A stretch of 64,000 nucleotides of DNA from an uncultured Phenylobacterium sp. (GTDB lineage: Bacteria > Pseudomonadota > Alphaproteobacteria > Caulobacterales > Caulobacteraceae). Positions within the stretch are counted from its first letter, which is position 1. Each line of letters starts with the position of its first letter. The stretch covers positions 14,181 to 78,180 of the forward strand of contig CAZERE010000001.1 in assembly GCA_964515365.1 (NCBI GenBank). The letters run 5' to 3'. A program made the translations under genes and the position numbers. A model generated the notes under the pieces. It saw only the letters and a list, made by a program, of their open reading frames with translations. It made no database searches and was not told where the DNA came from. Positions 50,352-64,000 of this stretch are shown one piece after another.

Positions 50352-51503
50352 ATGACCTATATCGACGGCTTCGTGATCGCAGTGCCCACAGCCAACCGCC
50401 AGAAGTTCATCGACCACGCCAACACTGGCGACAGCGTCTTCATGGAGCTGGGCGCCGTGCGCATCCTGGAATGCTGGGGCGACGACGTGCCCGAGGGCAA
50501 GCAGACTGATTTCCGCCGCGCCGTGCAGGCCACGGCGGACGAGACCGTGGTCTTCTCCTGGATCGAGTGGCCCGACAAGGCGACCCGCGACGCCGCCATG
50601 GCGCGCATGGAAGAGATGGTGAAGACCGATCCGCGGATGAGCCCCGAGCAAAATCCCATGCCCTTCGACGGAGCCCGCATGATCTTTGGCGGGTTCACCC
50701 CGGTCGTCACCGTGGAAGCCGCGCAGTCTGACAGCCAGGGCGACTTCATCTGGTACGAACTGCTCACCACCGACGCCGACGCGGCCCAGGCCTTCTACGC
50801 CAAGGTTCTGCCCTGGACGTTCAATGATTCCGGCCAGGCCGACATGGACTACCGCATCATTCGGGCGCCGGAGCATGATGTCGCCGGCCTGATGGCCATC
50901 ACCCCCGAGATGGCCGAGCATGGCGCCCGCCCCGTCTGGCTCTCCTATCTGGCGGTGGACGATGTGGATCAGTCGATCGCGGCGATCGAGCAAAAGGGCG
51001 GCGCCGTGCAGATGCCCGCCATGGACGTTCCCATGGTCGGCCGGATCGCCATGGTCGCCGATCCGCAGGGCGCGCCGCTCTACATCATGAAGCCCTCGGG
51101 GAGCGGCAAGAGCATGGCCTTCGCCTATGACCGGCCCCGGGTCGGCCATGCCGCCTGGAACGAGCTCCATACCGCCGACCAGCTCGGCGCCTGGGCCTTC
51201 TATGGCGACCTGTTCGGCTGGAGCCACGATGGCGACATGGATATGGGTCCCATGGGCCAGTACCAGTTCATCCGCCGCGGCGGCATGATCGGGGCCATGA
51301 TGAAGGCTGATCCCGCCATGGGTCCGCCCCACTGGAACACCTATTTACGGGTCGCCGACATCGACGCCGCCAAGACCGCGGTGGAAGCCGCCGGCGGTCA
51401 GGTGGTGCAAGGGCCCGACGAGATTCCCGGCGGCGACTTCTCCATGAACTGCATCGACCCCCAGGGCGCGGCCTTCGGCCTGGTGGGCGGTCGGTCGAGC
51501 TAG
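50352..51503 (+). CDS. DUF1428 (YbaA) domain fused to a tandem VOC/glyoxalase protein
   Basis: YIDGFVIAVP...ETVVFSWIEW...MPFDGARMIFGGF, then FIWYELLT...DPQGA and WNELHT...DPQGA. Confidence 0.9.
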   Translation: MTYIDGFVIAVPTANRQKFIDHANTGDSVFMELGAVRILECWGDDVPEGKQTDFRRAVQATADETVVFSWIEWPDKATRDAAMARMEEMVKTDPRMSPEQNPMPFDGARMIFGGFTPVVTVEAAQSDSQGDFIWYELLTTDADAAQAFYAKVLPWTFNDSGQADMDYRIIRAPEHDVAGLMAITPEMAEHGARPVWLSYLAVDDVDQSIAAIEQKGGAVQMPAMDVPMVGRIAMVADPQGAPLYIMKPSGSGKSMAFAYDRPRVGHAAWNELHTADQLGAWAFYGDLFGWSHDGDMDMGPMGQYQFIRRGGMIGAMMKADPAMGPPHWNTYLRVADIDAAKTAVEAAGGQVVQGPDEIPGGDFSMNCIDPQGAAFGLVGGRSS

Positions 51504-51572: not shown

Positions 51573-52865
51573 CTAAGGGATGATGATGGCTCCGGTGGCC
51601 ATGGCGGCCAGGGTGGCGAAGACGGAGAGCAGGAGCGCCCACGGCAGGCCGAACCGCTGGAGCTGGCCCACATCGGCGCGGATCAGGCTGGCGACCAGAT
51701 AGATCGGCGCGATGAAGGGGCTGAGCGCATGCAGCGGCATGCCCATCAGCGAAGCCCTGGCGATCACTTCGGGCGGAACGCCATAGGCCGCCCCCGTGGC
51801 GCCCAGGACCGGCACGATGCCGAAGAAGAAGGCGTCGTTGGACATGAACATCAGCAGCGGCATGCTGAGCACCGCGGTGATGGGACCCATATAGGGGCCG
51901 AGCGGCTCGGGGATCGTCGAGACCAGGCTCTGGGCCATGGCGTCGATCATCCCTGTGCCCGACAGGATGCCGGTAAAGGCGCCGGCGGCGAAGATCAGCG
52001 AGACCATCATCAGGATGGTCTCGCCGTGGTGGGCCAGGGCCGCCTTCTGCTCGGAGAGCCGCGGGAAGTTCAGAGTCACCGCAATGGCGAACCCGCCCAT
52101 CACCACGGCGGGCAAGGGCGCAAGCCCGGTGAGCATCCCGACCATCAGCCCGATGGTCAGAAGGAGGTTCAGCCAGAGGTTCCGGGTGGCCTTCGGCTCG
52201 ACCGTGATGGTTGCGGCCTCGTCCTCGGTGAGGGTGGGACCGCTGGTCTTCGCCAGGCGGCGACGCTCGGCCCGTCCCATGACGTAGGCGAGACCCAGCA
52301 CCGCCAGCAGCGACAGGCCGAGCGCCGGCAGCAGGGGTCCGACGATGTCCATGACGTCGATGCGCAGGGCGAGCGCGGCGCGAGCCGCAGGTCCGCCCCA
52401 GGGCAGCCAGTTCATCAGCGTGTTGCTGAGGCCGAGCAGCACAGCCAGGATCAGGGGATTGAGCCCCAGCCGGCGATAGACTGGGTACATGGCCGAGATG
52501 GTGACGATGGCGCTGGTGGCCCCGTCCCCGTCCAGCGAGACCAGCATGGCCAGGACCGCGCTGCCCACCACCACCCGGACCGGATCGTCGCCGGTCACCT
52601 GCAGGATCTTCCGCACCAGCGGCTCGAACAGCCCCGCCTCGATCATCACCGCGAAATAGAGCAGCGCGAAGATCAGCATCAGGGCGGTGGGCGCGACCTC
52701 GGTCACCCCTTCCAGCATCATGTCGCCCAGGCCCGCGCCGAATCCGGCGATGAGGCCAAAGACGATGGGCACGAGAATGAGCGCGGCGACCGCCGACAAT
52801 CGCCGCGAGAGCACCAGGGCCATGAAGACCGCCAGCGCCGAGAAGCCCAACAAAGACAGGTTCAT
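51573..52865 (-). CDS. CitMHS-family citrate/(metal-)carboxylate:H+ symporter
   Basis: VSLDGDGAT, NWLPWGGP, SNDAFFFG, HALSP; about 11-12 TM helices. Confidence 0.9.
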   Translation of the reverse strand: MNLSLLGFSALAVFMALVLSRRLSAVAALILVPIVFGLIAGFGAGLGDMMLEGVTEVAPTALMLIFALLYFAVMIEAGLFEPLVRKILQVTGDDPVRVVVGSAVLAMLVSLDGDGATSAIVTISAMYPVYRRLGLNPLILAVLLGLSNTLMNWLPWGGPAARAALALRIDVMDIVGPLLPALGLSLLAVLGLAYVMGRAERRRLAKTSGPTLTEDEAATITVEPKATRNLWLNLLLTIGLMVGMLTGLAPLPAVVMGGFAIAVTLNFPRLSEQKAALAHHGETILMMVSLIFAAGAFTGILSGTGMIDAMAQSLVSTIPEPLGPYMGPITAVLSMPLLMFMSNDAFFFGIVPVLGATGAAYGVPPEVIARASLMGMPLHALSPFIAPIYLVASLIRADVGQLQRFGLPWALLLSVFATLAAMATGAIIIP

Positions 52866-52920
52866 CTGATCCCTTTCGGATCGGAGGCCGACGCCAGGGC
52901 GAGGCGCCGGCCCACGCCGG

Positions 52921-55077
52921 TCAGTACTTCCAGTTGAGGCTGAGGCCGTAGGTCCGCGGCGGGTTGTAGGCGCCGAAATTCGCCCCCAGGAACACCGACT
53001 GGAAGGTTCGCGTGACCTCGTCCGTCAGGTTCTTGCCCCACAGCGAGACGGTCCAGTGGCGGGAGGGATCGGTGAAGATCACCCGCGCATCCACGAAATG
53101 GGTCGGGTCGCGCACCTCGGGCGGCAGGTTGGAATTGTCGTCGAAGATGCGGCTCTCATAGGCGTAGTCGAGGGCGAAGCGCAGATCCGCGCCGCTGGCC
53201 AGGGCCGCGGTGTAGGACGGCGAGACCACCAGCTTGTGCTCCGGCGTCCGCGAGATGCGGTTGCCCGCATAGTCCACCCCAGGCTCCGGCGAGAATTCGT
53301 CGAAGCGCGCGTCGGTATAGGCGTAGCTGGTCACCAGGCTGGCGCCGGCGAAGGGCCGCCACTGCAGATAGGTCTCATAGCCCTTGATGGTCGCCTGGCC
53401 GGCATTGTCGGTGACCACCGACAGATTGGGCAGGGTGCGCCGGGTCTGCAGGTCGTCGTATTTCATGATGTAGAGGGTGTTGTTCCACACCACCGCCCCG
53501 CCCAGCAGGACACTCTTCTGGCCGATCTCGTACTGGGTGGCGAACTCGGGCTCGAAACCGTCGGCGGCATCGGCGGCGCTGGACGGCGTGTCCTGGAACC
53601 CGCCGCTCTTGAAGCCGCGGGAAATCATCCCGTAGAGCAGATGGTCGTCGGTGGCCGCCCAGGTCAGGCCGGCGCGCCAGGTGACCGCCTCATAGTCGTC
53701 GGCGACGCTGACATCGAACAGCTCGCCAGCCCGGAAGAGCTCGGTGCTGGAGAGGTTGTCGATCCTGTAGTCCTTCTCGTCGCGCGTATAGCGGACCCCG
53801 GCCACCGCCGAGAGCTGCTCGGTGACCGGCGCGGTGACGTCAGCGAAGACGGCGTAGCTCGAGAGCTCGGCGGCCTGGGTATAGACCTCCCGCCCGGCGC
53901 TGCCGGCGATGTCGAGGTCGAGGATGTCCCGGCGATCGGTCTCGCTCTGGAAGAGATAGGCGCCGGCGATCCACTGGACGTCGCTCTCAGGCAGGGCGCT
54001 GAGCCGGAGTTCGTGACTGTAGAAGGTCGACTGCTCCTCGTTGCCGCCGGAGATGTCGACCAGATTGGTGGTCGGATTGCCGCCGTCGAAGTCGTAGGCG
54101 GCCGCATAGTCCAGGTCGCGGTACGACCCGAGATAGATCAGGGTCGCAAACGGCAGGTCGCGCTCGACCTGCAGCCGCGCCCCCCAGGTGTCGCGATCCT
54201 GATAGCCGACATAGGCGCCGGCGGTCTCATCCCGATCCCGGTCGATCGTCCAGAAGGCCGAAAGCGGATCGCCGGCGTCCAGGTCGAGGACATGCTGGGC
54301 CGGGCCGGTCTCGCGACTGCGGGTCCCGTCCAGGGTGGCCAGGAACCTGAGTTCCGGCTGGGGCTCAGCGCGCAGGGAGATGCGGCCGCTACGGGTGTCC
54401 TGGTCTTCCACCCGGTCGCCGGTGAAGGTGTTGCGGACATAGCCGTCATGGGTGCGCCAGGCGCCGCTGAGGCGGACCGCTGCGGTTCCGTCGGCGAAGG
54501 GCGCATTGAGCATGCCGGCGCCTTCCAGCCGCTCATAGTTGCCCACCGTCGCCTCGGCGGCGGCGTCGAAGCCCGCGAGGTCGGGCCGGCGGGTGACGAC
54601 ATTGATGGCCCCGCCGACCACGTTGCGGCCGAACAGCGTGCCCTGCGGACCTTTAAGGACCTCGATGCGCTCCACGTCGAAGGCGTCGAAGGCCACGGCC
54701 GCAGGACGGCCGATATAGATGTCGTCCAGGAAGACGGCCGCGCTGGGGTCGCCCGCCGCGCCGCGGTCCGAGGAGCCAATGCCGCGGATCGCAATGCGCG
54801 GTTGGGAGGACGGGAAGGCGTCGAACTGCAGACCCGGCGTGAGCGTCGCCACGTCCTGGACCTCGCGGATGCGCGCCTCTTCCACCTGCTCGGCGCCGAA
54901 GGCGGTGACGGTGACCGGGACATCCTGCAGGCTCTGGGCGCGCCGCTGGGCGGTGACGACCACCTCCTCCAACGTGCTGACCTCAGCAGTCTGAGCCTCC
55001 TGGGCCGTGGCCGCCTGGCCCGCGAGAAGGGCCGCCGCGGCTGCGCCGCCCGCCCATAGGCCTCGATGATCCCTCAC
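52921..55077 (-). CDS. TonB-dependent receptor
   Basis: EEVVVTAQRR, IAIRGIG, ERIEVLKGPQGTLFGRN, PRTYG, terminal Y. Confidence 0.95.
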   Translation of the reverse strand: MRDHRGLWAGGAAAAALLAGQAATAQEAQTAEVSTLEEVVVTAQRRAQSLQDVPVTVTAFGAEQVEEARIREVQDVATLTPGLQFDAFPSSQPRIAIRGIGSSDRGAAGDPSAAVFLDDIYIGRPAAVAFDAFDVERIEVLKGPQGTLFGRNVVGGAINVVTRRPDLAGFDAAAEATVGNYERLEGAGMLNAPFADGTAAVRLSGAWRTHDGYVRNTFTGDRVEDQDTRSGRISLRAEPQPELRFLATLDGTRSRETGPAQHVLDLDAGDPLSAFWTIDRDRDETAGAYVGYQDRDTWGARLQVERDLPFATLIYLGSYRDLDYAAAYDFDGGNPTTNLVDISGGNEEQSTFYSHELRLSALPESDVQWIAGAYLFQSETDRRDILDLDIAGSAGREVYTQAAELSSYAVFADVTAPVTEQLSAVAGVRYTRDEKDYRIDNLSSTELFRAGELFDVSVADDYEAVTWRAGLTWAATDDHLLYGMISRGFKSGGFQDTPSSAADAADGFEPEFATQYEIGQKSVLLGGAVVWNNTLYIMKYDDLQTRRTLPNLSVVTDNAGQATIKGYETYLQWRPFAGASLVTSYAYTDARFDEFSPEPGVDYAGNRISRTPEHKLVVSPSYTAALASGADLRFALDYAYESRIFDDNSNLPPEVRDPTHFVDARVIFTDPSRHWTVSLWGKNLTDEVTRTFQSVFLGANFGAYNPPRTYGLSLNWKY

Positions 55078-55148
55078 GTTCCAACTCCCCGTCTTGTTCT
55101 CGCTGGCGTGCAGCTTTGCCAGGGTGCTTACTGGGGTTGGACGCAGTA

Positions 55149-55178
55149 CGTCAATATTTTGGATCCAATTTATTGACG
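55149..55178. promoter_or_regulatory. 30-bp palindrome: VanR-type operator between two back-to-back TTGACG -35 elements
   Basis: CGTCAATAttTTGGATCCAAttTATTGACG; 13/15 arm positions pair. Confidence 0.8.
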
Positions 55179-55237
55179 CAATGAGGCCGATCCCGCTAAG
55201 GCTCGGCCCGCTTGGAAACGGTCAAAGAGGGTTTGGG

Positions 55238-56635
55238 ATGGAAAACGGCCCAATAAAGATACTTGTCCCGGTGGGTTCGCTGGGCGCAGGCGTCCGGGAA
55301 GAGGAGTTGCGGTACGGCCTCGCCCAGGGAGCGCAGGCGATCGCCACCGACGCCGGCTCCACCGACAGCGGCGCGGCCTATCTGGCGCTCGGAAAATCCA
55401 AGAATGACCGCAGCTCGGTGAAGCGGGACCTGGCGCTGCTGATGAAGGCCGGCGCCGAGGCCGGCATCCCGGTGATCGTCGGCACCTGCGGCCAGGCCGG
55501 CGGCGACCGCAACCTCGACTGGACCCGCGACATCGCCCTGGAGATCGCCGCCGAGCTCGGCCTGAAGCCCAAGATCGCCCTGCTCTATTCCGAGCAGGAC
55601 AAGGCGGTTCTGAAGGCCAAGAACGCCGCCGGCAAGATCCGCCCCCTGCCCCCGCTCGGCCCCCTGGATGACGCCACCATCGAGGCCTGCGACCACATCG
55701 TCGCGGCGATGGGCGCCGAGCCCTATATCGCCGTCCTGCGGGAAGGCGCCGACCTGATCCTGGGCGGCCGGACCACCGACACCGCGGTCATCGGGTCCTT
55801 CGCCCTCTGGCGCGGCGCCCATACGGCGGCGACCTGGCACGCGGCCAAGGTCGCCGAGTGCGGCGCCCAGTGCACGGTCAACACCGGCGAAGGCGCCGGC
55901 GTGCTGATCTCGATCGGCGCCGAGGGTTTCGAGGTCGAGCCGCTCAGCCTTGCGAACCAGTGCAGCCCGCACAGCGTCTCGGCCCACATGCTCTATGAGA
56001 ACAGCAATCCGTTCCGGCTGACTGAACCGGGCGGCGTCCTCGACGTCACGGAGTCCATCTACACGCTGGTGAATGAGCGGACCGTGCGGGTGACCGGGTC
56101 CCGCTGGGAGCCCCAGCCCTACACCATGAAGCTGGAAGGCGCCGCGGCCGGACGGTTCCAGACCCTCATGCTGATCGGCATCCAGGACCCGGAGGTGCTG
56201 TCGCGCCTGGACGAGTTCCACGACAAGCTGCTGCACGCCCTCTATCAGCGCACCCGCCGCACCATCGGCGAGGCCGCCGGCGACTTCCACATCTCGCTGC
56301 GGATCTATGGCTGGAACGCGGTCTCGGGCGACAAGCCGGCGCCGGGAACCCCTGCGCCGCGCGAGGTGGGCGTGCTGTTCATCGCCACCGCCGACACCCA
56401 GGCCATGGCCACCCAGATCGCCAACACCTGCAACGCCTACTTCTTCCACTTCCCCCTGCTGCGCGACAAGGAGCTGCCCAGCTACGGCTTCGCCTTCACG
56501 CCGGCCGAGGTCGAACGCGGACCGATCTATGAGTTCAAGCTGAACCACGTGGTCGAGACCGACGACCCCCTGGAGCTTGTGCGCACGAAATGGATCGACC
56601 TGTCAGAGGAAGGGACCGCCCATGTCGACCGTTAA
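55238..56635 (+). CDS. AtuA (DUF1446)-family protein
   Basis: DAGSTDSG..YL, IVGTCGQAG, MGAEPY, GRTTD, KVAECG, SAHMLYEN; start re-called at ATG 55238. Confidence 0.88.
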   Translation: MENGPIKILVPVGSLGAGVREEELRYGLAQGAQAIATDAGSTDSGAAYLALGKSKNDRSSVKRDLALLMKAGAEAGIPVIVGTCGQAGGDRNLDWTRDIALEIAAELGLKPKIALLYSEQDKAVLKAKNAAGKIRPLPPLGPLDDATIEACDHIVAAMGAEPYIAVLREGADLILGGRTTDTAVIGSFALWRGAHTAATWHAAKVAECGAQCTVNTGEGAGVLISIGAEGFEVEPLSLANQCSPHSVSAHMLYENSNPFRLTEPGGVLDVTESIYTLVNERTVRVTGSRWEPQPYTMKLEGAAAGRFQTLMLIGIQDPEVLSRLDEFHDKLLHALYQRTRRTIGEAAGDFHISLRIYGWNAVSGDKPAPGTPAPREVGVLFIATADTQAMATQIANTCNAYFFHFPLLRDKELPSYGFAFTPAEVERGPIYEFKLNHVVETDDPLELVRTKWIDLSEEGTAHVDR

Positions 56636-56930
56636 GGACGTCTGCCGTCATGTCCGCTCGAAGAACGCCGGGCCGTTCTGGGTGACCTTCGACCTCTTCT
56701 TCGATGGCGAGGAGAGTTTCGCGAAGTACGCCGAGGCGCCGGCCCTGGGGCCGCAGCTCTTTGCGCGCCTGTTCGGGGCCGACCCGGCCTTCGTTCAGCG
56801 CTATCCGGTGGCGAGCCTGAACATGGTCAAGATCTCCTATGCCCGCACCGAACCCCAGGGCGGCATGATCGAGCGGGACATGCACCGCGGCCAGCAATAT
56901 GTCCGCCTGCTCGACGTCGAGCTCGACTGA
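56622..56930 (+). CDS. DUF4387-family protein (AtuA partner)
   Basis: VRSKNAGPFWVTFD...G...ERDM.R.QQ; overlaps the end of the atuA-like gene. Confidence 0.85.
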   Translation: MSTVKDVCRHVRSKNAGPFWVTFDLFFDGEESFAKYAEAPALGPQLFARLFGADPAFVQRYPVASLNMVKISYARTEPQGGMIERDMHRGQQYVRLLDVELD

Positions 56931-56960
56931 TCCACGGCGGCGGCCCTCAAGACCTAGAGT

Positions 56961-57578
56961 CTAGATCGGGGCCATCGCCAGCCAGGGATGGCGTTGCAAA
57001 TGCGCCATCTCGAACGCCCGGATTTCATCGGCGCGAGCCAGGGCCACGCCAATGGCGTCGAGGCCGTTCAACAGGGCGTGCCGGCGCGACGGATCGATCT
57101 CGAACCGCCAGACGCCGCCTGCGCCCTCAATAGTCTGGGCTTCCAGGTCCAGGGTGAGCCGGCTGGTCTCCGGCCGCGCCACCAGGGCCAGCAGATCCTC
57201 GGCCTCCTCAGGCGGCAGGGTCACGGCCAGCAGGCCGTTGCGGGCGCAGTTGTCGAAGAAGATGCCCGCGAAGCTGGTCCCGATCAGGGCGCGAACGCCC
57301 AGTTGCGAGAGCCCCCAGACCGCGTGCTCACGGCTTGAGCCGCAGCCGAAATTCGGCCCCACCACCAGGAAGCGGGCGTCACGCCAGGGCGGTTGGTTGA
57401 GGATGAAGTCCGCTCGCGGTTGGCCGGCCTCATCGAAGCGAAGGTCGTGAAAGGCGCCGCGGGCGAGGCCGGCGCGGTCGATGCCCTTCAGGAACTGCTT
57501 GGGCATGATGACATCGGTGTCGATATTGGCGGCCGGCAGGGGCGCTGCGATCCCCTCGACCCGCTGGAACGGCTCCAT
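56961..57578 (-). CDS. LeuD-like aconitase-family dehydratase, small subunit
   Basis: NIDTDVIMPKQFL, NFGCGSSREHA, SFAGIFFDN, LLNGLDAI. Confidence 0.9.
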   Translation of the reverse strand: MEPFQRVEGIAAPLPAANIDTDVIMPKQFLKGIDRAGLARGAFHDLRFDEAGQPRADFILNQPPWRDARFLVVGPNFGCGSSREHAVWGLSQLGVRALIGTSFAGIFFDNCARNGLLAVTLPPEEAEDLLALVARPETSRLTLDLEAQTIEGAGGVWRFEIDPSRRHALLNGLDAIGVALARADEIRAFEMAHLQRHPWLAMAPI

Positions 57579-57581
57579 GGC

Positions 57582-59000
57582 CTAATCCTCCATCTGGCGC
57601 ACATCGGTGAGACGCCCGCGAACCGCCGCGGCGGCCACCATGGCCGGGCTCATCAGGTGTGTGCGTCCGCCAGCGCCCTGGCGGCCCTCGAAGTTGCGAT
57701 TGGTGCTCGAGGCGCATCGCTCTCCCGGCGCCAGGACATCGTCATTCATGGCCAGGCACATGGAGCAGCCCGACTGGCGCCACTCGAAGCCGGCCGCCTG
57801 AAAGATCAGGTCGAGCCCCTCGGCCTCGGCCTGACGGCGGACGCTGGTGGAGCCGGGCACCACCATGGCGCGGACGCCGGCCGCCACCGTCCGGCCCCGC
57901 AGGACCGCAGCGGCGTCACGCAGATCCTCGATGCGCGCATTGGTGCACGAGCCGATGAAAGCCCGGTCGATCCGCACGCTTTCAAGCGGCGCGCCGGGCT
58001 CAAGGCCCATGTATTCCAGCGCCCGGGCCGCATCGCGCCGCCGCGACGGGGTGGCCTCAGCCGCGGGATCGGGCACGCGCCCCAGCACCGAGACGGCCTG
58101 GTCGGGACTGGTGCCCCAGGTCACCATGGGTTCGATCTCTTCGGCGCGCAGCACCTCGTGGCGGGCATAGACGGCGCCGGGATCGGCCCTCAGCCCGCGC
58201 CATGACGCCACGGCGGCGTCCCACATGCCCCCCTTCGGCGCCCTGGGAAGACCGGAAAGATAGTCGAACACCTTCTCGTCCGGGGCCACCAGGGCGCCGC
58301 GGGCGCCGCACTCCACCGCCATGTTGCAGAGGGTCATGCGGCCCTCGACGCTGAGCGCCGACAGGGTGTCGCCGCAGAATTCGATGGCGCAGCCGGTGGC
58401 CCCGTCGGCGCCGATCCGGGCGATCAGGGCCATCACCACGTCCTTGGCGGTGACGCCCAGCGGCAGGCGGCCGGTCACCTCCACCTTGATGGGCTTGAGC
58501 CGGCGATAGACCACCGTCGAGGTGGCCAGCATGTGCTCGATGTCAGACGTGCCGATGCCGAATCCCAGGGCGCCGAAGGCGCCATAGGTGGTGGTGTGGC
58601 TGTCGCCGGCGGCCACCACCATGCCCGGCAGGATCAGGCCGAGTTCCGGGGCGACCACATGCTCGATCCCCTGGTTGGGGTGGAGGATGTCGAAGAGTTC
58701 GATGCCGAAGTCGCGGCAGTTGCGGCCGAAATAGGCCACCTGCTCGGCCCCGCCGGGATCGGGCATGCTTGCGGTGCGGATCGGCGCGGTGGCGTTGACG
58801 TGGTCGACCACCCCCAGCAGGCGCTCGGGCCGCCACACCTTCCGGCCGGCGTCGCGCAGTCCGGTGAAGGCCTGCGGGCTGGTGTATTCATTGAGGACGC
58901 TGCGATCGACGTAGAGCAGCACCGTGGCGCCGTCCTCGTCCAGGCGGGCGACGGTGTGGTCGTCCACCAGCTTGTCATAGAGGGTCCGGGGCGGGCTCAT
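57582..59000 (-). CDS. LeuC-like [4Fe-4S] dehydratase, large subunit (non-canonical paralogue)
   Basis: GDSHT, GSCTN, GCSMCLAMN, STNRNFEGRQG; altered N-terminal substrate motifs. Confidence 0.9.
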   Translation of the reverse strand: MSPPRTLYDKLVDDHTVARLDEDGATVLLYVDRSVLNEYTSPQAFTGLRDAGRKVWRPERLLGVVDHVNATAPIRTASMPDPGGAEQVAYFGRNCRDFGIELFDILHPNQGIEHVVAPELGLILPGMVVAAGDSHTTTYGAFGALGFGIGTSDIEHMLATSTVVYRRLKPIKVEVTGRLPLGVTAKDVVMALIARIGADGATGCAIEFCGDTLSALSVEGRMTLCNMAVECGARGALVAPDEKVFDYLSGLPRAPKGGMWDAAVASWRGLRADPGAVYARHEVLRAEEIEPMVTWGTSPDQAVSVLGRVPDPAAEATPSRRRDAARALEYMGLEPGAPLESVRIDRAFIGSCTNARIEDLRDAAAVLRGRTVAAGVRAMVVPGSTSVRRQAEAEGLDLIFQAAGFEWRQSGCSMCLAMNDDVLAPGERCASSTNRNFEGRQGAGGRTHLMSPAMVAAAAVRGRLTDVRQMED

Positions 59001-60019
59001 GCGTCCACCACGTCCAGGGGCTGGCGCCCGTCGGCGACGATACAGGCCGGCGGCGGATCCTCCCCGTTCAACACGGCGACCACACAGCGGGCGGCGATCA
59101 TATTGGTGCGCGCCAGGCCTTCACGGGTGGAGGCGCCGGCGTGGGGCGCGGCGATGACGTCGGCCCGGGCGATCAGAGCGTCGGTGACGGGCTGCAGGGC
59201 CGGATCGCTCTCGCTCTCGAACACGTCGAGGCCGGCGCCGCCCAGGCGCCCGCCCTGCAGCGCGGCCAGCAGGTCACGGTCCGACACCAGGCCGCCGCGG
59301 GCGGTGTTGATCAGGAAGGCGCCGGGCCGCATCCGATCGATCGCTGCGGCGTCGATCATATGCCGGGTGGCCGGCGTCAGGGGGGCGTGGAGGGTGATGT
59401 AGTCGCTCTGCGTCAGCAGGGTGTCGAGGTCCACATGGCGGACGCCCGTCCGGGCGGCGTATTCGGGATCGGTCCGCGAAGTCGCCACCAGCACCTCGGC
59501 CTCGAAGCCGCTCAGGCGCTGGACGACGCTGCGCCCGATCCGCCCGAGGCCCACCAGGCCGACGGTCTTTTGATAGAGGTCGGACCCCATCAGGATCGAC
59601 CACGAGCCGGCGTTCATCTGCGCCTTCGCCTCGCGGAAGCGACGGCCGAGCGCGATCATCATGCCGATGGCCTGGTCGGCGACCGAGGCGTCGTTGCCGC
59701 CCGCCGCGATGGTCACCACCCGCCCGAGCTCGGTGGCGGCCTCGAGGTCCACCCGCTCATAGCCGACCCCGCGTCGCGCGATGACCGCCAGGCGTGGCAG
59801 GGCCATGAGCAGAAAGCGCGTGACCTTGGCATGGCCGACGATCCAGCCCTGGGCGCCGACCAGCATCGCGGCCAGGCGATCATGGTCGAGGTCGCCATCG
59901 GCCTCCCCCGGCGCCAGGTCGGCGATGACGACGTCGCAGCCGGCCGCCTCCAGATAGGCGATCGCAGCCTCGTCGAAGAACCGCTGGGTCACCACGACCC
60001 GCCTGTTGTTGAGCGCCAT
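58997..60019 (-). CDS. D-isomer-specific 2-hydroxyacid dehydrogenase
   Basis: GLVGLGRIG, LHAPLT, INTARG, GLDVFESE, APHAG; ATGA-coupled to the leuC-like gene. Confidence 0.92.
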   Translation of the reverse strand: MALNNRRVVVTQRFFDEAAIAYLEAAGCDVVIADLAPGEADGDLDHDRLAAMLVGAQGWIVGHAKVTRFLLMALPRLAVIARRGVGYERVDLEAATELGRVVTIAAGGNDASVADQAIGMMIALGRRFREAKAQMNAGSWSILMGSDLYQKTVGLVGLGRIGRSVVQRLSGFEAEVLVATSRTDPEYAARTGVRHVDLDTLLTQSDYITLHAPLTPATRHMIDAAAIDRMRPGAFLINTARGGLVSDRDLLAALQGGRLGGAGLDVFESESDPALQPVTDALIARADVIAAPHAGASTREGLARTNMIAARCVVAVLNGEDPPPACIVADGRQPLDVVDA

Positions 60020-60131
60020 GCCTGCACCTCCCGTGACCGCCCTTGCGGTAACCCAGGCCGGGCGCGGCGGGCCAAGTCCGCTTGCGCATAAGCCTATGCG
60101 GCTGGTGACGAGGGCTTGGCAGGCCGGGGAT

Positions 60132-60890
60132 TTAGCGGGTGGCGATACGGTGCAGGCGCGCCTTGGTCCGCAGCACGTGCTCGGTCATGAGCCTGCCGGC
60201 CGCTGCGCTGTCGCCGCCGCGGATGGCCTCCAGAATGGCCTCATGATCGGCTTGCGAGACGCAGATGAATTCCGGCGGCGTGTCGGGCACTTCGCGCAGG
60301 CGCAGGGGCACATGGTCGGCCACGGTCGGGCACAGCCGGGCCGGATCCCCAAACAACGGATAGAGCAGCGTCATGCGGATGGCGTTGCGCAGGACGCCGT
60401 TCTGAGGCGCCAGCTGGATCGCCCGGTGAAACAGGCGGTTGATGGCGTACCAGTCCCGCTCGATGGCCTCGGACCAGCGGCCCTCGGCCAGGATGGCCCC
60501 ACCGCGCTCCACCATGCGCTCGACCTCCGCCAGGGCATCAGCCGTCCAGCCCATCTCCACCGAGAGCCTGGCCCCCAGGCCCTCGAGTTGCGCCCGCACG
60601 TCGATGGAATCGAGGATGTCGCTGAGCTTCATGCTCTGGACGGTGTAGCCGCGATTGACCCCATAGCTGACCAGGCCCTCGGCGGAGAGCACCGCCAGGG
60701 CGCTGCGCACCGGGGTGCGCGAGACGTTCATCTCGGTGGCCAGGGCCTCGGCCCGGAGCTTGCTGCCCGGCGGCAGACGACCCATGACGATCTGTTCGCG
60801 CAGGTGGGTCAGGACGGTGTAGGTCGCAGGCTCGGTATAGGGCTCGGAACTCGCCGCCCCGAACGACGCCAGCCATCCTTCACCTGTCAT
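60132..60890 (-). CDS. GntR/FCD regulator, VanR-like
   Basis: VSRTPVRSAL..L..EGLV....RGY...DSIDVRAQLEG; NRLFH, DHEAI, EH; start uncertain. Confidence 0.9.
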   Translation of the reverse strand: MTGEGWLASFGAASSEPYTEPATYTVLTHLREQIVMGRLPPGSKLRAEALATEMNVSRTPVRSALAVLSAEGLVSYGVNRGYTVQSMKLSDILDSIDVRAQLEGLGARLSVEMGWTADALAEVERMVERGGAILAEGRWSEAIERDWYAINRLFHRAIQLAPQNGVLRNAIRMTLLYPLFGDPARLCPTVADHVPLRLREVPDTPPEFICVSQADHEAILEAIRGGDSAAAGRLMTEHVLRTKARLHRIATR

Positions 60891-61042
60891 CCCAGCCGTC
60901 CTTTCGCCAGTTCCCCGCCCCGGGGGAGAGCGCCTCAGATACACCACTGCGGAGAGATTGCAGCGCCTCCCGACCCTGGTGTCGAGGCCGGTGATAGTCT
61001 TACACGGCCCAGGCCCGGTGGGCGCGGCGGAGGAGACGGCGG

Positions 61043-61981
61043 ATGGAACTGGCCTGGCTGGAGGACTTTCTGGCGCTTGCCCGGGAGCGGAACTTCTCGC
61101 GCGCCGCCGAGGTCCGCCACATATCGCAGCCGGCCTTCAGCCGCCGCGTCCGCATGCTGGAGGACTGGCTCCAGGCGCCGCTCTTCGACCGCGACACCCA
61201 CCGCGTGGAACTGACCGCGGCCGGGGCGGAATTCCTGCCCATCGCCGAGGAGATCGCGCGCCGTATCGCCTTTGGCCGAGAACGGGTCCGGGAGGTCGCC
61301 GAACTGTCGGCCAGCAGCCTGCGCATCGCCTGCACCAATGTCCTGTCCCTGACCTTCTTCCCCGCCTGGCTGCAGGTCCTGGAACAGGCCGCCGCGCCCT
61401 CGAACATCAGCCTGGTCACCGACAGCATGGCCGACTGCGAGCGCCTGATGATCGAGGGCCAGGCGCAGTTCATCCTCTGCCACCATCACCCGGCGACCAC
61501 GACGGAACTCGACTCCGCAGCCTTCCTCGCCCTGGACATCGGCGCCGATGTGCTGGCGCCGGTGAGCGCGCCGGCGGGGCCGGGGGACGCCGCGCCCCGG
61601 CATCCCCTGCCTGGGTCGCCCGAGACGCCCACCGCGCATCTGGCCTTCAGCGCCGCCTCCGGCATGGGGCGCATCGTCTCGGCCACGCGGAGCGCCGGGG
61701 CGCCGGCGACCTGGCTCACCCCCGTATTCACCGCGCACCTGGCCATGGTGCTGCTGATCATGGCGCGGGAGGGACGCGGCATGGCCTGGCTGCCGCTCAG
61801 CCTGACGAGACAGGACCTGGAGGCCGGCCGCCTGGTGCGCAGCGCGCCCTCCGGCGACTGGGACATCCCCATGAGCATCCGCCTGTATCGCCCCCGCGCG
61901 CGGCAAAGCCCGGCGGCGGAGGCCTTCTGGTCCCAGGCGGCCGCGGCGGCGGACGAAGCGGCGCGTCCGGCCCGCCGCTAA
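61043..61981 (+). CDS. LysR-family regulator
   Basis: WLEDFLALA..RNFSRAA..RHISQPAFSRRV. Confidence 0.95.
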   Translation: MELAWLEDFLALARERNFSRAAEVRHISQPAFSRRVRMLEDWLQAPLFDRDTHRVELTAAGAEFLPIAEEIARRIAFGRERVREVAELSASSLRIACTNVLSLTFFPAWLQVLEQAAAPSNISLVTDSMADCERLMIEGQAQFILCHHHPATTTELDSAAFLALDIGADVLAPVSAPAGPGDAAPRHPLPGSPETPTAHLAFSAASGMGRIVSATRSAGAPATWLTPVFTAHLAMVLLIMAREGRGMAWLPLSLTRQDLEAGRLVRSAPSGDWDIPMSIRLYRPRARQSPAAEAFWSQAAAAADEAARPARR

Positions 61982-62119
61982 GCCGCCCACAAGGCGACCT
62001 GTCGGCCCGTCCGGCGTGTCAGAGCTCATTCTTGGGCCTCATGGAGTCCTGAGAACATATCGCTTTTCAGTCCGCCCCCCCGGCTCCAAGCCTCCTTCAA
62101 ACCATGTGGGAGAGAACTG

Positions 62120-63151
62120 ATGAGCGTGTCGCCGCTGCAAGACCTGGTCGAGACCGTGCTGGGCGCCGACCGCTCCGATGAGATGTTCCAGCTGCTGGTC
62201 GTGCATCCCGACCTGATGGCCCCGGCCGAGGGAGTCAGCCGCGCGGTCATGGCCCAGGCCCTGAACATGGTGCTGTTCAGCGACCTGCTGCTTCGGGTGC
62301 CGGCCGCGGCGGACTATGCTGCCGACTGCCTGCGGGACGGTCGGACCATCTTCCATGACCATGGCGCGGTGCGCACGGTGGTGATGAGCGGCATGGGCGC
62401 GCTGCCGTCCGGCGAGGCCGCCGTGGTGCGCGTGCTGAAGCCGTTGGGCTACCAGCAGAACGGGCTCTATCCCCTGGAGCGCCTGAAGATGACGGGGCGC
62501 TCCTACGCCCATCTCGACTATCCCGAGGACATCGCCCAGTTCTTCGTCAGCGAGCTGCACACCGACCGGTTCTCGCCGGACTTCGTCAAGGCCGCCCGCG
62601 CCGTCACCGCCACGTCCCGCGACCCGCTGTCGGATGCGGCCAAGGCCGTGCTGGCGACATTCCAGGCCAAGGGCGAGGTGGATCTCGCCGCGGCGGCCGC
62701 CGTCCTGCCCGTCCTGGCGGCCTGCTTTGACCGCCAGCACGACGCGCCGGCCCGGGCCGACTACGAGGCCCTGCTGGCGGAGTCGGCCGAAATGGCCTGG
62801 ATCGCCACCGAGGGGAACGCCTTCAACCACGCCACCGACCGGGTGGACGACGTCGAGGCCGTGGCCGAAGCCCAGAAGACCCTGGGCCGGCCGATGAAGG
62901 ACACGGTCGAAGTCTCGGGCTCGGGCCGTGTGCGGCAGACCGCCTTCCGCGCCGCCCAGGTGATGCGGGACTTCGTGGACGCCGACGGGGCCACGGTCAC
63001 GCGGTCGGCGCCCGGCTCCTTCTACGAGTTCATCACCCGCCTGCAGATGACCGACGAGAAGACCGGCCGCCCGCGCCTGGACCTCGCCTTTGACAGCTCC
63101 AACGCCCAGGGCATCTTCAAGATGACCGCCGCGGCCGGCGCCGATCGCTGA
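62120..63151 (+). CDS. DUF1338-family 2-oxoadipate dioxygenase/decarboxylase (HglS-like)
   Basis: Fe-ligand motifs DHGAVRT, FNHATDRV, FYEFITR; FVSEL; NAQGIF. Confidence 0.82.
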   Translation: MSVSPLQDLVETVLGADRSDEMFQLLVVHPDLMAPAEGVSRAVMAQALNMVLFSDLLLRVPAAADYAADCLRDGRTIFHDHGAVRTVVMSGMGALPSGEAAVVRVLKPLGYQQNGLYPLERLKMTGRSYAHLDYPEDIAQFFVSELHTDRFSPDFVKAARAVTATSRDPLSDAAKAVLATFQAKGEVDLAAAAAVLPVLAACFDRQHDAPARADYEALLAESAEMAWIATEGNAFNHATDRVDDVEAVAEAQKTLGRPMKDTVEVSGSGRVRQTAFRAAQVMRDFVDADGATVTRSAPGSFYEFITRLQMTDEKTGRPRLDLAFDSSNAQGIFKMTAAAGADR

Positions 63152-63154
63152 GGC

Positions 63155-64000
63155 ATGAACGCCCAACTCGCCGCCGACCTTGCGAAACTGGTGGGCGACG
63201 ACGCTCTGCTGACGGCGCCGGAGGACCTGCGGGCCTATGATCAGGCGGCGCGCTATGAGGGCGGCCGCGCCGCGGTGGTGGTCCGGCCCCGCACCCCGGC
63301 CGGCGTCTCGGCGATCGTCGCCTGGTGTGTCAGCCACCAGGTGGCGCTGGCGGTCCAGGGCGCCAATACGGGCCTGGTCGGCGCCTCGACGGCGGACGAC
63401 AGCGGCCGTCAGGTTCTGCTCAGCCTGGAGCGGCTGCAGGCGCCGCTGGAGATCGACCCCATCAACCGCAGCGTCCGCGCCGGCGCCGGCGTCCGCCTCT
63501 CGGCCGTCAACGCCGCCCTGCAGCCGCACGGCCTCTTCCTACCCATCGACCTGGGCGCCGACCCCACCGTCGGCGGCATGGCGGCGACCAACACCGGCGG
63601 CGCCCGCTTCATCCGCTATGGCGACATGCGCCGGCAGGTGCTCGGCCTGGAGATGGTCCTGGCCGACGCGGCCGGAACGGTGGTGCGACTGCGCCGCGGC
63701 CTGCGGAAGGACAATACCGGCCTCGACCTGCGCCAAGTGGTGATCGGGGCCGGCGGCGCGCTCGGCGTCATCACCGCCGTGGAGTTCGAGGCTCATCCCC
63801 TTCCCGCCCAGACCGCAGCGGCCCTGGTGCTGCTGGAGGACCTCGACACCGCCCTGCCGCTCCTCCTGCACATGGAACGGGAAGGCGGCGAGACCCTGTC
63901 GGCCTTCGAGGGCATGTCCCGGGCCGCCCTGGCCGCGGCGCTGACTCACGGGCCAGGGCTGCGAAACCCCTTCGCAGGCGGCCTGCCGCCCTATGCGGTG
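63155..64000 (+). CDS. FAD-binding oxidoreductase (D-2-hydroxyglutarate dehydrogenase-like); truncated by window edge
   Basis: Manual translation from ATG 63155: VVRPRT, QGANTGLVGAS, DLGADPTVGGMAATNTGG, RKDNTG.DL. Confidence 0.88.
   Translation, partial: MNAQLAADLAKLVGDDALLTAPEDLRAYDQAARYEGGRAAVVVRPRTPAGVSAIVAWCVSHQVALAVQGANTGLVGASTADDSGRQVLLSLERLQAPLEIDPINRSVRAGAGVRLSAVNAALQPHGLFLPIDLGADPTVGGMAATNTGGARFIRYGDMRRQVLGLEMVLADAAGTVVRLRRGLRKDNTGLDLRQVVIGAGGALGVITAVEFEAHPLPAQTAAALVLLEDLDTALPLLLHMEREGGETLSAFEGMSRAALAAALTHGPGLRNPFAGGLPPYAV

Follow-up and report, generated by a model that had tools for sequence, protein, structure and literature searches.

A conserved AtuA/DUF4387 gene cassette from Phenylobacterium with a predicted role in the breakdown of a citrate-like acid

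Introduction

Proteins of the AtuA and DUF4387 families form the two subunits of citramalate lyase, CmlAB (PDB entries 9ERQ/9EVF; Raoultella planticola Cml; Escherichia coli ECs_0760/ECs_0759), which cleaves (S)-citramalate to pyruvate and acetate, and are encoded by adjacent genes. The homologous genes of E. coli O157:H7 come directly after methylaspartase in a glutamate-fermentation cluster (PMC4682846). Here we analyse a pair with the same arrangement and fold in 64,000 nucleotides (nt) of DNA from an uncultured Phenylobacterium sp. (assembly GCA_964515365.1, contig CAZERE010000001.1, positions 14,181 to 78,180; this whole stretch is referred to as the window), where the pair lies within a cassette of nine genes, citM to lysR. 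Unlike CmlAB, the window pair lies outside any glutamate mutase-methylaspartase-FumD cluster of the kind that holds the E. coli O157:H7 genes, and its neighbours, instead of glutamate mutase, methylaspartase and mesaconase, are the genes of an aerobic module for import and reduction. Its AtuA is only 33% identical to ECs_0760 and falls on a separate branch, and Lys, Arg and His replace Phe55, Asn85 and Tyr88 of CmlAB.

Several other described systems share parts of this arrangement. Citrate lyase (CitDEF) and ATP-citrate lyase also cleave a C-C bond to release an acetyl unit from a tertiary hydroxy acid, and cleave some hydroxycitrate isomers in vitro, but they are unrelated proteins that need an acyl carrier protein or coenzyme A (CoA), and the cassette has no such genes. 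The LeuCD hydro-lyases (isopropylmalate isomerase, homoaconitase and maleate/citraconate hydratase) resemble the LeuC-LeuD pair of the window in having two subunits, intact cysteine motifs and a DSHT motif; the window LeuC differs in carrying NEY for HEV/HDI/HDG and GIEH for GIVH. The products of ttuC and ttuD, tartrate dehydrogenase (EC 1.1.1.93, 4.1.1.73, 1.1.1.83) and a MOFRL-type glycerate 2-kinase, replace LeuCD in 20 of 75 related loci; unlike in the ttu operon, their substrate there would be tartrate that the cell itself has made with a lyase and a reductase, and the gene order of these clusters also differs from that of the operon. Neither ttuC nor ttuD was found in the present genome, where the only match is LeuB beside the housekeeping leuD. 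Finally, HglS and D-2-hydroxyglutarate dehydrogenase of lysine catabolism represent the families of the two right-hand genes of the window. The HglS-family protein encoded here belongs to a 343-residue subfamily nearest to the uncharacterised structure 3IUZ and scores far under the NCBIfam HglS cut-off (21 bits against 550), and its gene is unlinked to the cassette across genomes.

Conservation of the cassette in related loci

Related loci were gathered with two independent anchors, atuA in genomes (79 loci) and the dehydrogenase in metagenomes (80 loci), and 162 loci were pooled. Their genes were called with our own codon-usage caller and with tblastn at hand-set identity cut-offs, of which the 50% cut-off for glycerate kinase missed L018 and L020, found by clustering; two genomes contribute duplicate loci (L009/L101 and L037/L174). 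The first nine genes of the region cluster far beyond chance. The genes from citM to lysR recur together, and the preliminary description of this DNA was right to see here a catabolic cassette for a citrate-like acid that is conserved and apparently undescribed.

Among the 79 atuA-anchored genome loci, DUF4387 is present in 78, CitMHS in 40 (within 10 kb), the D-2-hydroxyacid dehydrogenase in 34, LeuD in 18, LeuC in 17 and LysR in 16. In the metagenome scan, loci with a close dehydrogenase (at least 57% identity) have the same module, and distant ones have none of it. The dehydrogenase clade occurs in 75 of the 162 pooled loci, and atuA accompanies it in 60 of these (57 of the 61 that span at least 10 kb), while among 42 control loci, whose dehydrogenases are distant, only three have atuA, LeuCD, TtuC or the MOFRL glycerate kinase, all three having been fetched by atuA. 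TonB-dependent receptors match in 36 of the 75 dehydrogenase loci, some of them as distant family matches, and LysR in 24; GntR/FCD orthologs with 54-98% identity occur in many related loci. Gene order varies among the clusters, and their importers are of tricarboxylate types (CitMHS, TctABC/Bug). The expected co-occurrence of AtuA, CitMHS, the dehydrogenase and LeuCD was thus borne out, but that of DUF1338, with which they had been grouped, was not (0 of 162 loci).

In the window, a CitMHS-family citrate:proton symporter (51573-52865, minus strand; TIGR00784, 484.9 bits against a cut-off of 259.7) and a TonB-dependent receptor (52921-55077, minus strand; PF00593 and PF07715) are, from their families, the likely inner- and outer-membrane importers of the acid.

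Other families recur in minorities of the loci, including class II aldolases, AbrB membrane proteins, PrpD-family proteins (12 of the 75 dehydrogenase loci) and regulators with a citrate synthase domain (13 of the 75). The latter, in which the domain is joined to a helix-turn-helix, stand beside lyase genes in L035, L037, L044, L050, L076, L077 and nine more loci, and may sense the substrate. Enzymes that open esters, lactones or lactams are represented by a LIP lipase (10 loci), an oxoprolinase pair (8 loci), an alpha/beta esterase (7 loci) and a beta-propeller lactonase (one genome), and would fit hydroxycitrate lactones or acyl esters. The hydantoinase/oxoprolinase A and B pair adjoins the dehydrogenase or lyase genes (L112 6196-9992 and seven other loci; also L183 and L184), and its role could be to open the ring of a substrate that occurs as a lactone or lactam. 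Genes of the methylaspartate pathway (glutamate mutase, methylaspartase, mesaconase) are not among the recurring families of the related loci.

The AtuA/DUF4387 pair

The atuA gene (55238-56635, plus strand; PF07287) overlaps the DUF4387 gene (56622-56930, plus strand; PF14330) by 14 nt. In phmmer searches each protein matches one distinct PDB sequence: AtuA matches citramalate lyase subunit A (9ERQ/9EVF, E 2e-75), and DUF4387 matches subunit B (9erq_B, E 9e-12). The AlphaFold (AF2) model of AtuA, computed from an alignment of 48 sequences that drew on 47 of the 79 genome loci, has a predicted local distance difference test score (pLDDT) of 92.9. It aligns with 9evf_A over 445 residues with Z 48.6 and a root-mean-square deviation of 2.6, the next structure having Z 9.3, and Foldseek gives E 1e-48 and TM 0.86 for the same pair. 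The two proteins, to which only an unspecified step had previously been assigned, match CmlAB in sequence, and AtuA also in fold.

The E. coli and window subunits A have in common the motifs DAGS-x-D-x-G, GR-x-D, H-x-x-K-x-x-EC, H-x-LYE and KLEG. Residues D38, G40, S41, D43, G82, G88, R178, D181, H201, K204, E207 and C208 of AtuA are identical in ECs_0760, as are H250, Y253, E254 and K298; the tree that places the two proteins on separate branches omitted sequences shorter than 420 residues. Other positions differ. K55, which is kept in at least 95% of 43 core sequences, is Phe55 in E. coli CmlA, and DUF4387 has R85 and H88 where CmlB has Asn85 and Tyr88.

Because 9evf is entitled "Citramalate lyase - ADP - pyruvate complex", the window pair is expected to carry out an ATP-dependent retro-Claisen cleavage without CoA. 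By analogy, it would remove acetate from a tertiary hydroxy acid, with a substrate that probably differs from that of CmlAB. If the geometry of (S)-citramalate cleavage is kept, (2S,3R)-hydroxycitrate would be the favoured isomer of hydroxycitrate. We consider this lyase chemistry highly probable, and from the structural model AtuA/DUF4387 is probably the cleavage step of the cassette.

Several clusters contain two AtuA/DUF4387 pairs (L174, at 5898 and 11798; L109, L116, L119, L183 and L184). The paired copies usually come from different subclades, with signatures Q86 and T86, which suggests two isomers or two successive cleavages. In E. coli O157:H7 Sakai (L182 21934-23618), the genes homologous to those of CmlA and CmlB bear the names "3-methylaspartate ammonia-lyase" and "acyl-CoA synthetase", in what looks like a misannotation. 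A distant AtuA (37%)/DUF4387 pair on a Diaphorobacter plasmid (NZ_CP049906.1; L189 5307-11118) has a flavin monooxygenase, a flavin reductase, an aldehyde dehydrogenase and PrpD as neighbours, a cluster that we take to resemble those for the breakdown of aminopolycarboxylate chelators.

The dehydrogenase and its alternative partners

The dehydrogenase gene (58997-60019, minus strand) encodes both Pfam domains of the D-2-hydroxyacid family (PF00389 and PF02826), with GLGRIG at position 157 and the catalytic motif residues R241, E268 and H293 kept, but the protein scores below all named subfamily cut-offs. It belongs to a distinct clade marked by the motifs RRGVG (70 of 71 members) and GH[AS] (71 of 71). 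An acidic residue after the nucleotide-binding strand is typical of NAD-linked oxidising members of the family. Such a residue is present in at most five of the 71 clade members in any column, and the protein carries extra conserved basic residues (Arg/His). The absence of the acidic residue from most members suggests that the enzyme uses NADPH and works in the reductive direction, and its predicted role is that of an oxaloglycolate reductase.

Two unrelated enzymes alternate beside this dehydrogenase. LeuCD is found in 33 of the 75 dehydrogenase loci and TtuC in 20, with both in none and neither in 22. The identification of TtuC is based on TIGR02089 (583 bits, against a cut-off of 470) and on a match to 3FLK (E 2e-164). 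A MOFRL glycerate kinase is present in 15 of the 75 loci, of which 12 have TtuC and none has LeuCD. The same pattern is seen in the 49 genomes of the closer AtuA clade, a set drawn from the 79 loci. In 35 of these genomes there is a dehydrogenase of the clade, accompanied by LeuCD-type genes only in 16 (two of these counted from fragments in loci L056 and L069), by TtuC only in 16, by both in three and by neither in none; the 16 LeuCD-only genomes hold no TtuC-level match. Cultured carriers of the LeuCD type include Steroidobacter flavus, S. gossypii and Alloalcanivorax balearicus, and those of the TtuC type Kordiimonas aestuarii and Caulobacter sp. Root1455. Among the 14 genomes without the dehydrogenase, LeuCD-type genes occur in none and TtuC in one. 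A glycerate kinase, MOFRL or GlxK, is present in 13 of the 16 TtuC-only genomes and one of the 16 LeuCD-only genomes.

These genomes are related and many are incomplete, so that the counts overstate independence, and we rely on repeated swapping rather than on a p-value. On the dehydrogenase tree, where L019 and L034 owe their LeuCD label to the genome-wide analysis, the LeuCD/TtuC label needs five to six changes, at least three of them forced by starred branches. Together with the varied gene order, these changes argue for repeated swapping of LeuCD and TtuC. From this pattern the two would be alternatives that act on the dehydrogenase product, and not successive steps.

In the preliminary description the dehydrogenase was given the oxidative decarboxylation step. 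That role does not hold up: D-2-hydroxyacid dehydrogenases are not beta-decarboxylating enzymes, and TtuC, the sole such enzyme seen in these clusters, never shares a locus with LeuCD.

The LeuC-LeuD paralog

The window LeuC (57582-59000, minus strand) belongs to the PRK12466 subfamily (best model NF009116/PRK12466, 770.9 bits), and LeuD (56961-57578, minus strand; NF002458 and TIGR00171) would be the small subunit of the same non-housekeeping [4Fe-4S] hydro-lyase. A second, housekeeping leuCD lies beside leuB on other contigs (C79/C181). The two pairs are 51-54% identical over most of their length (54% for LeuD and the C79 copy), and the LeuD motif is IMPKQFLKGIDR in the window and IIPKQFLKTVER in the housekeeping copy. 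The cluster-binding motifs GSCTN and GCSMC of LeuC are intact and DSHT is present. NEYTSPQ, GIEHV and MNDD are found in all 31 cluster LeuCs, while the housekeeping LeuC has HEVTTPQ and GIVHV at the corresponding positions. The residues N38-E39-Y40 align with H-D-I in isopropylmalate isomerase and with H-D-G in homoaconitase (4KP2).

The pair exceeds the isopropylmalate isomerase cut-offs (TIGR00170, 645.9 against 560.25; TIGR00171, 212.7 against 116.25), with PRK12466 scoring higher still, but it has neither the HEV-type pocket nor the leuB linkage of the housekeeping enzyme. The earlier judgement that this LeuCD is non-canonical therefore stands, given the NEY motif and the separate leuB-linked copy. 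Nor does it resemble a homoaconitase: it falls below those cut-offs (TIGR01343, 334 against 386; NF040615, 253 against 550), Tyr40 stands where 4KP2 has Gly, and the cassette holds no beta-decarboxylating homoisocitrate dehydrogenase, the partner of that enzyme. The LeuC pocket appears to fit a small polar substituent.

LeuC proteins of at least 74% identity were found in only two of 200 other genomes of the family, both within 6 kb of atuA. Matches to PF17645, a family of the maleate isomerase type, are partial and weak in five of the 19 genomes with LeuCD-type genes and absent from this one, in a search that gave no match in any control genome either. A protein of about 395 residues without a Pfam match (L102 3429-4610, L107 and L195 121-1320) belongs to a more extensive module of the LeuCD type, together with an FAD oxidoreductase and an FMN dehydrogenase; the modules of L102 and L107 also hold an IlvD-type dehydratase and an FAA hydrolase.

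The right-hand boundary of the cassette

The LysR gene (61043-61981, plus strand) is followed after 138 nt by the gene for a DUF1338/HglS-family protein (here hglS; 62120-63151, plus strand; PF07063, 95.1 bits against 25) and then by that for an FAD-linked oxidoreductase of the D-2-hydroxyglutarate/D-lactate dehydrogenase type (63155-64000, plus strand, continuing past the window; PF01565), which at full length has 473 residues (L001 1336-2757). The DNA common to the window and eight close relatives stops at 61,933-61,963, the end of lysR. The lysR-hglS junction is bridged by single contigs of two studies and is not an assembly artefact. LysR orthologs with 55-56% identity lie directly before a detached leuCD in two Nitrospirillum/Azospirillum genomes (L196 and L197). 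LysR, which had been grouped with the hglS block, thus belongs to the lyase cassette instead.

No hglS was found in any of the 162 related loci or the 79 atuA loci, and the 162 loci contain no copy of the FAD oxidoreductase with at least 45% identity. The caveat that the hglS block might be merely adjacent was well placed. Two close relatives have this block as well, with 89-90% identity over 5.2 kb that comprise hglS, the FAD oxidoreductase, three small genes and a LysR of the GcvA type. About 14 kb separate it there from the cassette, a spacing that indicates shared chromosomal ancestry and not coupling. The closest structure to the DUF1338 protein (343 residues) is 3IUZ (E 4e-114; HglS 6W1G, E 9e-5), and it scores 20.7 and 25.6 bits where the NCBIfam HglS cut-offs are 550 and 600. 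The FAD oxidoreductase matches the D-2-hydroxyglutarate dehydrogenase 6LPN (E 3e-51). In 10 relatives, the neighbours of DUF1338 include an aldehyde dehydrogenase (6 of 10) and the same FAD oxidoreductase (2 of 10), surroundings that are compatible with lysine breakdown. DUF1338 is a divergent HglS-family protein from a separate, probably lysine-related module, and the FAD oxidoreductase would be its partner and lie outside the cassette. Both genes are most likely bystanders.

Proposed pathway

The LeuCD and LeuB families both act on (2R,3S)-3-substituted malates, and TtuC yields glycerate only if the substituent is OH. Since glycerate kinase tracks TtuC, the substituent on the malate would be OH. 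By priority bookkeeping, exchanging the isopropyl group of (2R,3S)-3-isopropylmalate for OH yields meso-tartrate, and the oxaloglycolate derived from a 2S-hydroxycitrate also gives meso-tartrate when its reduction is D-specific; both natural hydroxycitric acids are 2S. The parent compound is accordingly read as hydroxycitrate, in keeping with the citrate-type importers.

In our best model, CitMHS and the TonB receptor would import a hydroxylated citrate, most likely hydroxycitrate, which AtuA/DUF4387 would split into acetate and oxaloglycolate in an ATP-driven, CoA-free reaction. The dehydrogenase would reduce oxaloglycolate to meso-tartrate, and the LeuCD paralog would dehydrate this to oxaloacetate. 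In relatives of the TtuC type, meso-tartrate would instead be decarboxylated to D-glycerate and then phosphorylated by the MOFRL glycerate kinase. Tartrate dehydrogenase is described as linking oxaloglycolate with tartrate and meso-tartrate (PMC7895386). The LeuCD step is proposed by analogy with fumarases (malate hydro-lyases), which dehydrate (2S,3S)-tartrate to oxaloacetate and do not accept meso-tartrate (PMC4682846). We think it reasonably probable that the steps run in the order lyase, reductase, and then LeuCD or TtuC. The specific choice of hydroxycitrate as the imported acid and meso-tartrate as the shared intermediate is more tentative, and we hold it at somewhat less than even confidence.

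A number of observations weigh against this model. The compound itself is inferred from neighbouring genes. To our knowledge hydroxycitrate is found mainly in plants and a few bacteria, and near-identical DNA comes from marine and aquatic metagenomes, which have no obvious source of it. The model also presupposes that TtuC turns meso-tartrate into D-glycerate. K55 is also present in 62 of 68 other AtuA homologs, and so is not specific to dehydrogenase-linked lyases. Fourteen of the 49 genomes have the lyase but neither the dehydrogenase nor any LeuCD-type gene, 13 of them also without TtuC, and a glycerate kinase is present in only five of the 14; the lyase alone must therefore yield usable products there, which fits citramalate, citrate or homocitrate at least equally well. 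Three TtuC-only genomes (G613, G615 and G627) have neither of the two glycerate kinase types that were searched, a third class not having been searched, and the kinase could in part have hitch-hiked with ttuC from tartrate operons. Three genomes (G610, G619 and G620) hold both LeuCD-type and TtuC genes, though in separate modules. Beside the LeuCD of G610 stands a second copy of the dehydrogenase. The detached leuCD of G619 and G620 is preceded by a LysR that shares 55-56% identity with that of the window and lies beside the same class II aldolase, and ttuC of these two genomes is surrounded by unrelated genes. When 400 Alphaproteobacteria were searched for this LeuC clade, the only two carriers (G339 and G586; same subfamily, 60-61% identity) had their LeuC in clusters without atuA; the subfamily is accordingly not limited to this pathway, although two carriers tell little about it as a whole.

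The NEY-type LeuCD of these two genomes (L172 and L173) lies in a conserved cluster with an esterase, a TonB receptor and an enolase-superfamily enzyme.

Alternative explanations

The route put forward in the preliminary description took homocitrate or homoaconitate through LeuCD and an oxidative decarboxylation to 2-oxoadipate, and then through HglS and the FAD dehydrogenase. The cassette and hglS are truly adjacent in this species, the two close relatives carry the hglS block on the same contig as the cassette, and HGLS-family genes occur in 11 of the 49 genomes and seven of the 19 LeuCD-type genomes, but the other 12 of these 19 have no HGLS match, the 14 kb gaps hold potassium-uptake or cobalamin genes, and the block has its own GcvA-type LysR. 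Among 200 genomes of the family, AtuA occurs in 16 and this DUF1338 in 10, with both in one, on different contigs. In addition to the absence of hglS from the related loci, of a homoisocitrate dehydrogenase from the cassette and of the homoaconitase glycine from LeuC, the lyase alone would turn homocitrate into 2-oxoglutarate and acetate, bypassing HglS. This route is largely refuted by the genomics, and we regard it as highly improbable. The cassette might otherwise be a scavenging kit for D-series C4/C5 dicarboxylates. Its first step would be the hydration of maleate or citraconate by LeuCD; (R)-citramalate would be cleaved by the lyase and D-malate oxidised by the dehydrogenase, with TtuC and glycerate kinase as D-malate/tartrate add-ons. 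LeuCD-plus-lyase pairs have precedent in nicotinate fermentation, the lyase-plus-transporter-only clusters (14 of 49 genomes) fit citramalate, and in L196 the gene after the detached leuCD encodes a 2-hydroxycarboxylate transporter. Maleate hydratase activity is known for LeuC-type enzymes (PMC8307300), and the only characterised relative of the lyase cleaves citramalate. A maleate hydratase should, however, co-occur with TtuC, the D-malate dehydrogenase, yet none of the 75 loci has both, and the three of 35 genomes that do have them in separate modules. Beside TtuC, in 20 loci, the dehydrogenase would also be redundant; no genome has it without LeuCD-type or TtuC genes (0 of 35), and it lacks the acidic residue typical of NAD-linked oxidising members of its family. 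In a preprint, (R)-citramalate gave no growth through Cml in the strains used. We judge such a kit unlikely.

The order of steps in the hydroxycitrate model could also be kept with a different acid. If this were 2-methylcitrate or another alkylcitrate, the lyase would give acetate and methyl-oxaloacetate, the dehydrogenase (2R,3S)-3-methylmalate, and the last step 2-oxobutyrate with TtuC or (R)-citramalate with LeuCD. As 3-methylmalate is a substrate of both LeuCD and LeuB-family enzymes, the LeuCD/TtuC interchange would be explained, and the PrpD-family genes, the citrate-synthase-domain regulators and the clusters with two lyase pairs, which could cleave both acids, are in line with such a substrate; but the PrpD clade scores far under the methylcitrate dehydratase cut-offs, and housekeeping LeuB and LeuCD already handle 3-methylmalate. 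The association of glycerate kinase with TtuC (13 of 16 genomes, against 1 of 16) would be left unexplained, and the LeuCD branch would end in (R)-citramalate, which needs a second cleavage, while this genome (82% complete) has one atuA; an alkylcitrate is thus rather unlikely. A nitrogen-containing or conjugated substrate (an aminocitrate lactam, a chelator of the hydroxy-iminodisuccinate type or a siderophore fragment), which would reach the same oxaloglycolate/tartrate-level C4 unit after an extra hydrolysis, seems quite unlikely. The oxoprolinase/hydantoinase pair adjoining the dehydrogenase or lyase in eight loci and on two plasmids, the chelates suggested by the TonB receptors, the iminodisuccinate epimerase among PrpD-family members and the distant Diaphorobacter AtuA with its flavin monooxygenase and PrpD all speak for it; yet the window cassette has no amidase, oxoprolinase or aminotransferase, most clusters lack them too, and the inner-membrane carrier is a plain citrate-type symporter.

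Four further candidates were rejected. Conversion of citrate through oxaloacetate to D-malate would be futile, oxaloacetate being already central. Itatartarate, through hydroxypyruvate to glycerate, leaves LeuCD and TtuC unexplained, and only one of the 16 LeuCD-only genomes has a glycerate kinase. Acetoacetate, the product from 3-hydroxy-3-methylglutarate, is not reduced by this dehydrogenase family, and if the lyase cleaved tartrate directly, there would be no explanation for the dehydrogenase.

Gene organisation and neighbouring features

Profile searches of the window proteins found all eleven named open reading frames intact, in the order and on the strands originally described. Tight coupling was seen for the dehydrogenase, leuC and leuD (gaps of -4 and 3 nt), but it does not extend, as had been suggested, to the GntR/FCD regulator (60132-60890, minus strand; PF00392 and PF07729), which lies 112 nt from the dehydrogenase gene. 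A promoter scan gave no sigma-70 site and no convincing terminator. The window is part of contig C1 of a 3.3 Mb, 82% complete genome, whose nearest relatives in the named collection are Phenylobacterium metagenome-assembled genomes. AtuA, DUF4387, CitMHS and DUF1338 are single-copy in the assembly, and the three PF01177 matches of this genome all lie on other contigs.

On the left, the cassette is flanked by a gene for a DUF1428 domain fused to two glyoxalase/VOC domains (50352-51503, plus strand), which is probably not a cassette member, as it is found on either side in close relatives (L006 and L095). About 8-17 kb past the window, two similar large genes encode proteins of 941 and 996 residues (L001 10594-13419 and 15970-18960), the former matching the zinc carboxypeptidases of family M14; near them are genes for an aminotransferase, a symporter of dicarboxylates or amino acids and a porin-like protein.

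Implications

Each enzyme family of the cassette is already known, and it is the catabolic module that is real, sharply bounded and undescribed. In the open-access literature we found no description of this cassette, no paper on hydroxycitrate with oxaloglycolate or on hydroxycitrate catabolism, no meso-tartrate dehydratase of the isopropylmalate isomerase kind, no gene for the conversion of meso-tartrate to oxaloacetate, nothing on DUF4387 and no primary description of CmlAB, these being weak absences as subscription papers are mostly outside it. It is possible, though doubtful, that the cassette represents the first gene-level bacterial hydroxycitrate catabolism, with an ATP-driven, CoA-free hydroxycitrate lyase, whose activity would be new to the CmlAB family, a dedicated oxaloglycolate reductase and a LeuCD-family meso-tartrate dehydratase.

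The AtuA/DUF4387 family has one newly solved member, and most of its clades are without an assigned substrate. Here the chemistry is tightly constrained by the gene context: two unrelated enzymes repeatedly replace each other beside a single dehydrogenase, and a glycerate kinase accompanies just one of the two. Should hydroxycitrate prove to be the wrong substrate, what remains is an orphan pathway with clear limits, to which HglS need no longer be linked. If the model is right, it would provide an undescribed catabolic route and a gene for meso-tartrate dehydration, and correct the annotations "3-isopropylmalate dehydratase" and "phosphoglycerate dehydrogenase" of many proteins. Part of the PRK12466 subfamily, a widespread "second LeuCD", would gain a function, and hydroxycitrate, free or conjugated, would then be a common natural substrate in water and soil.

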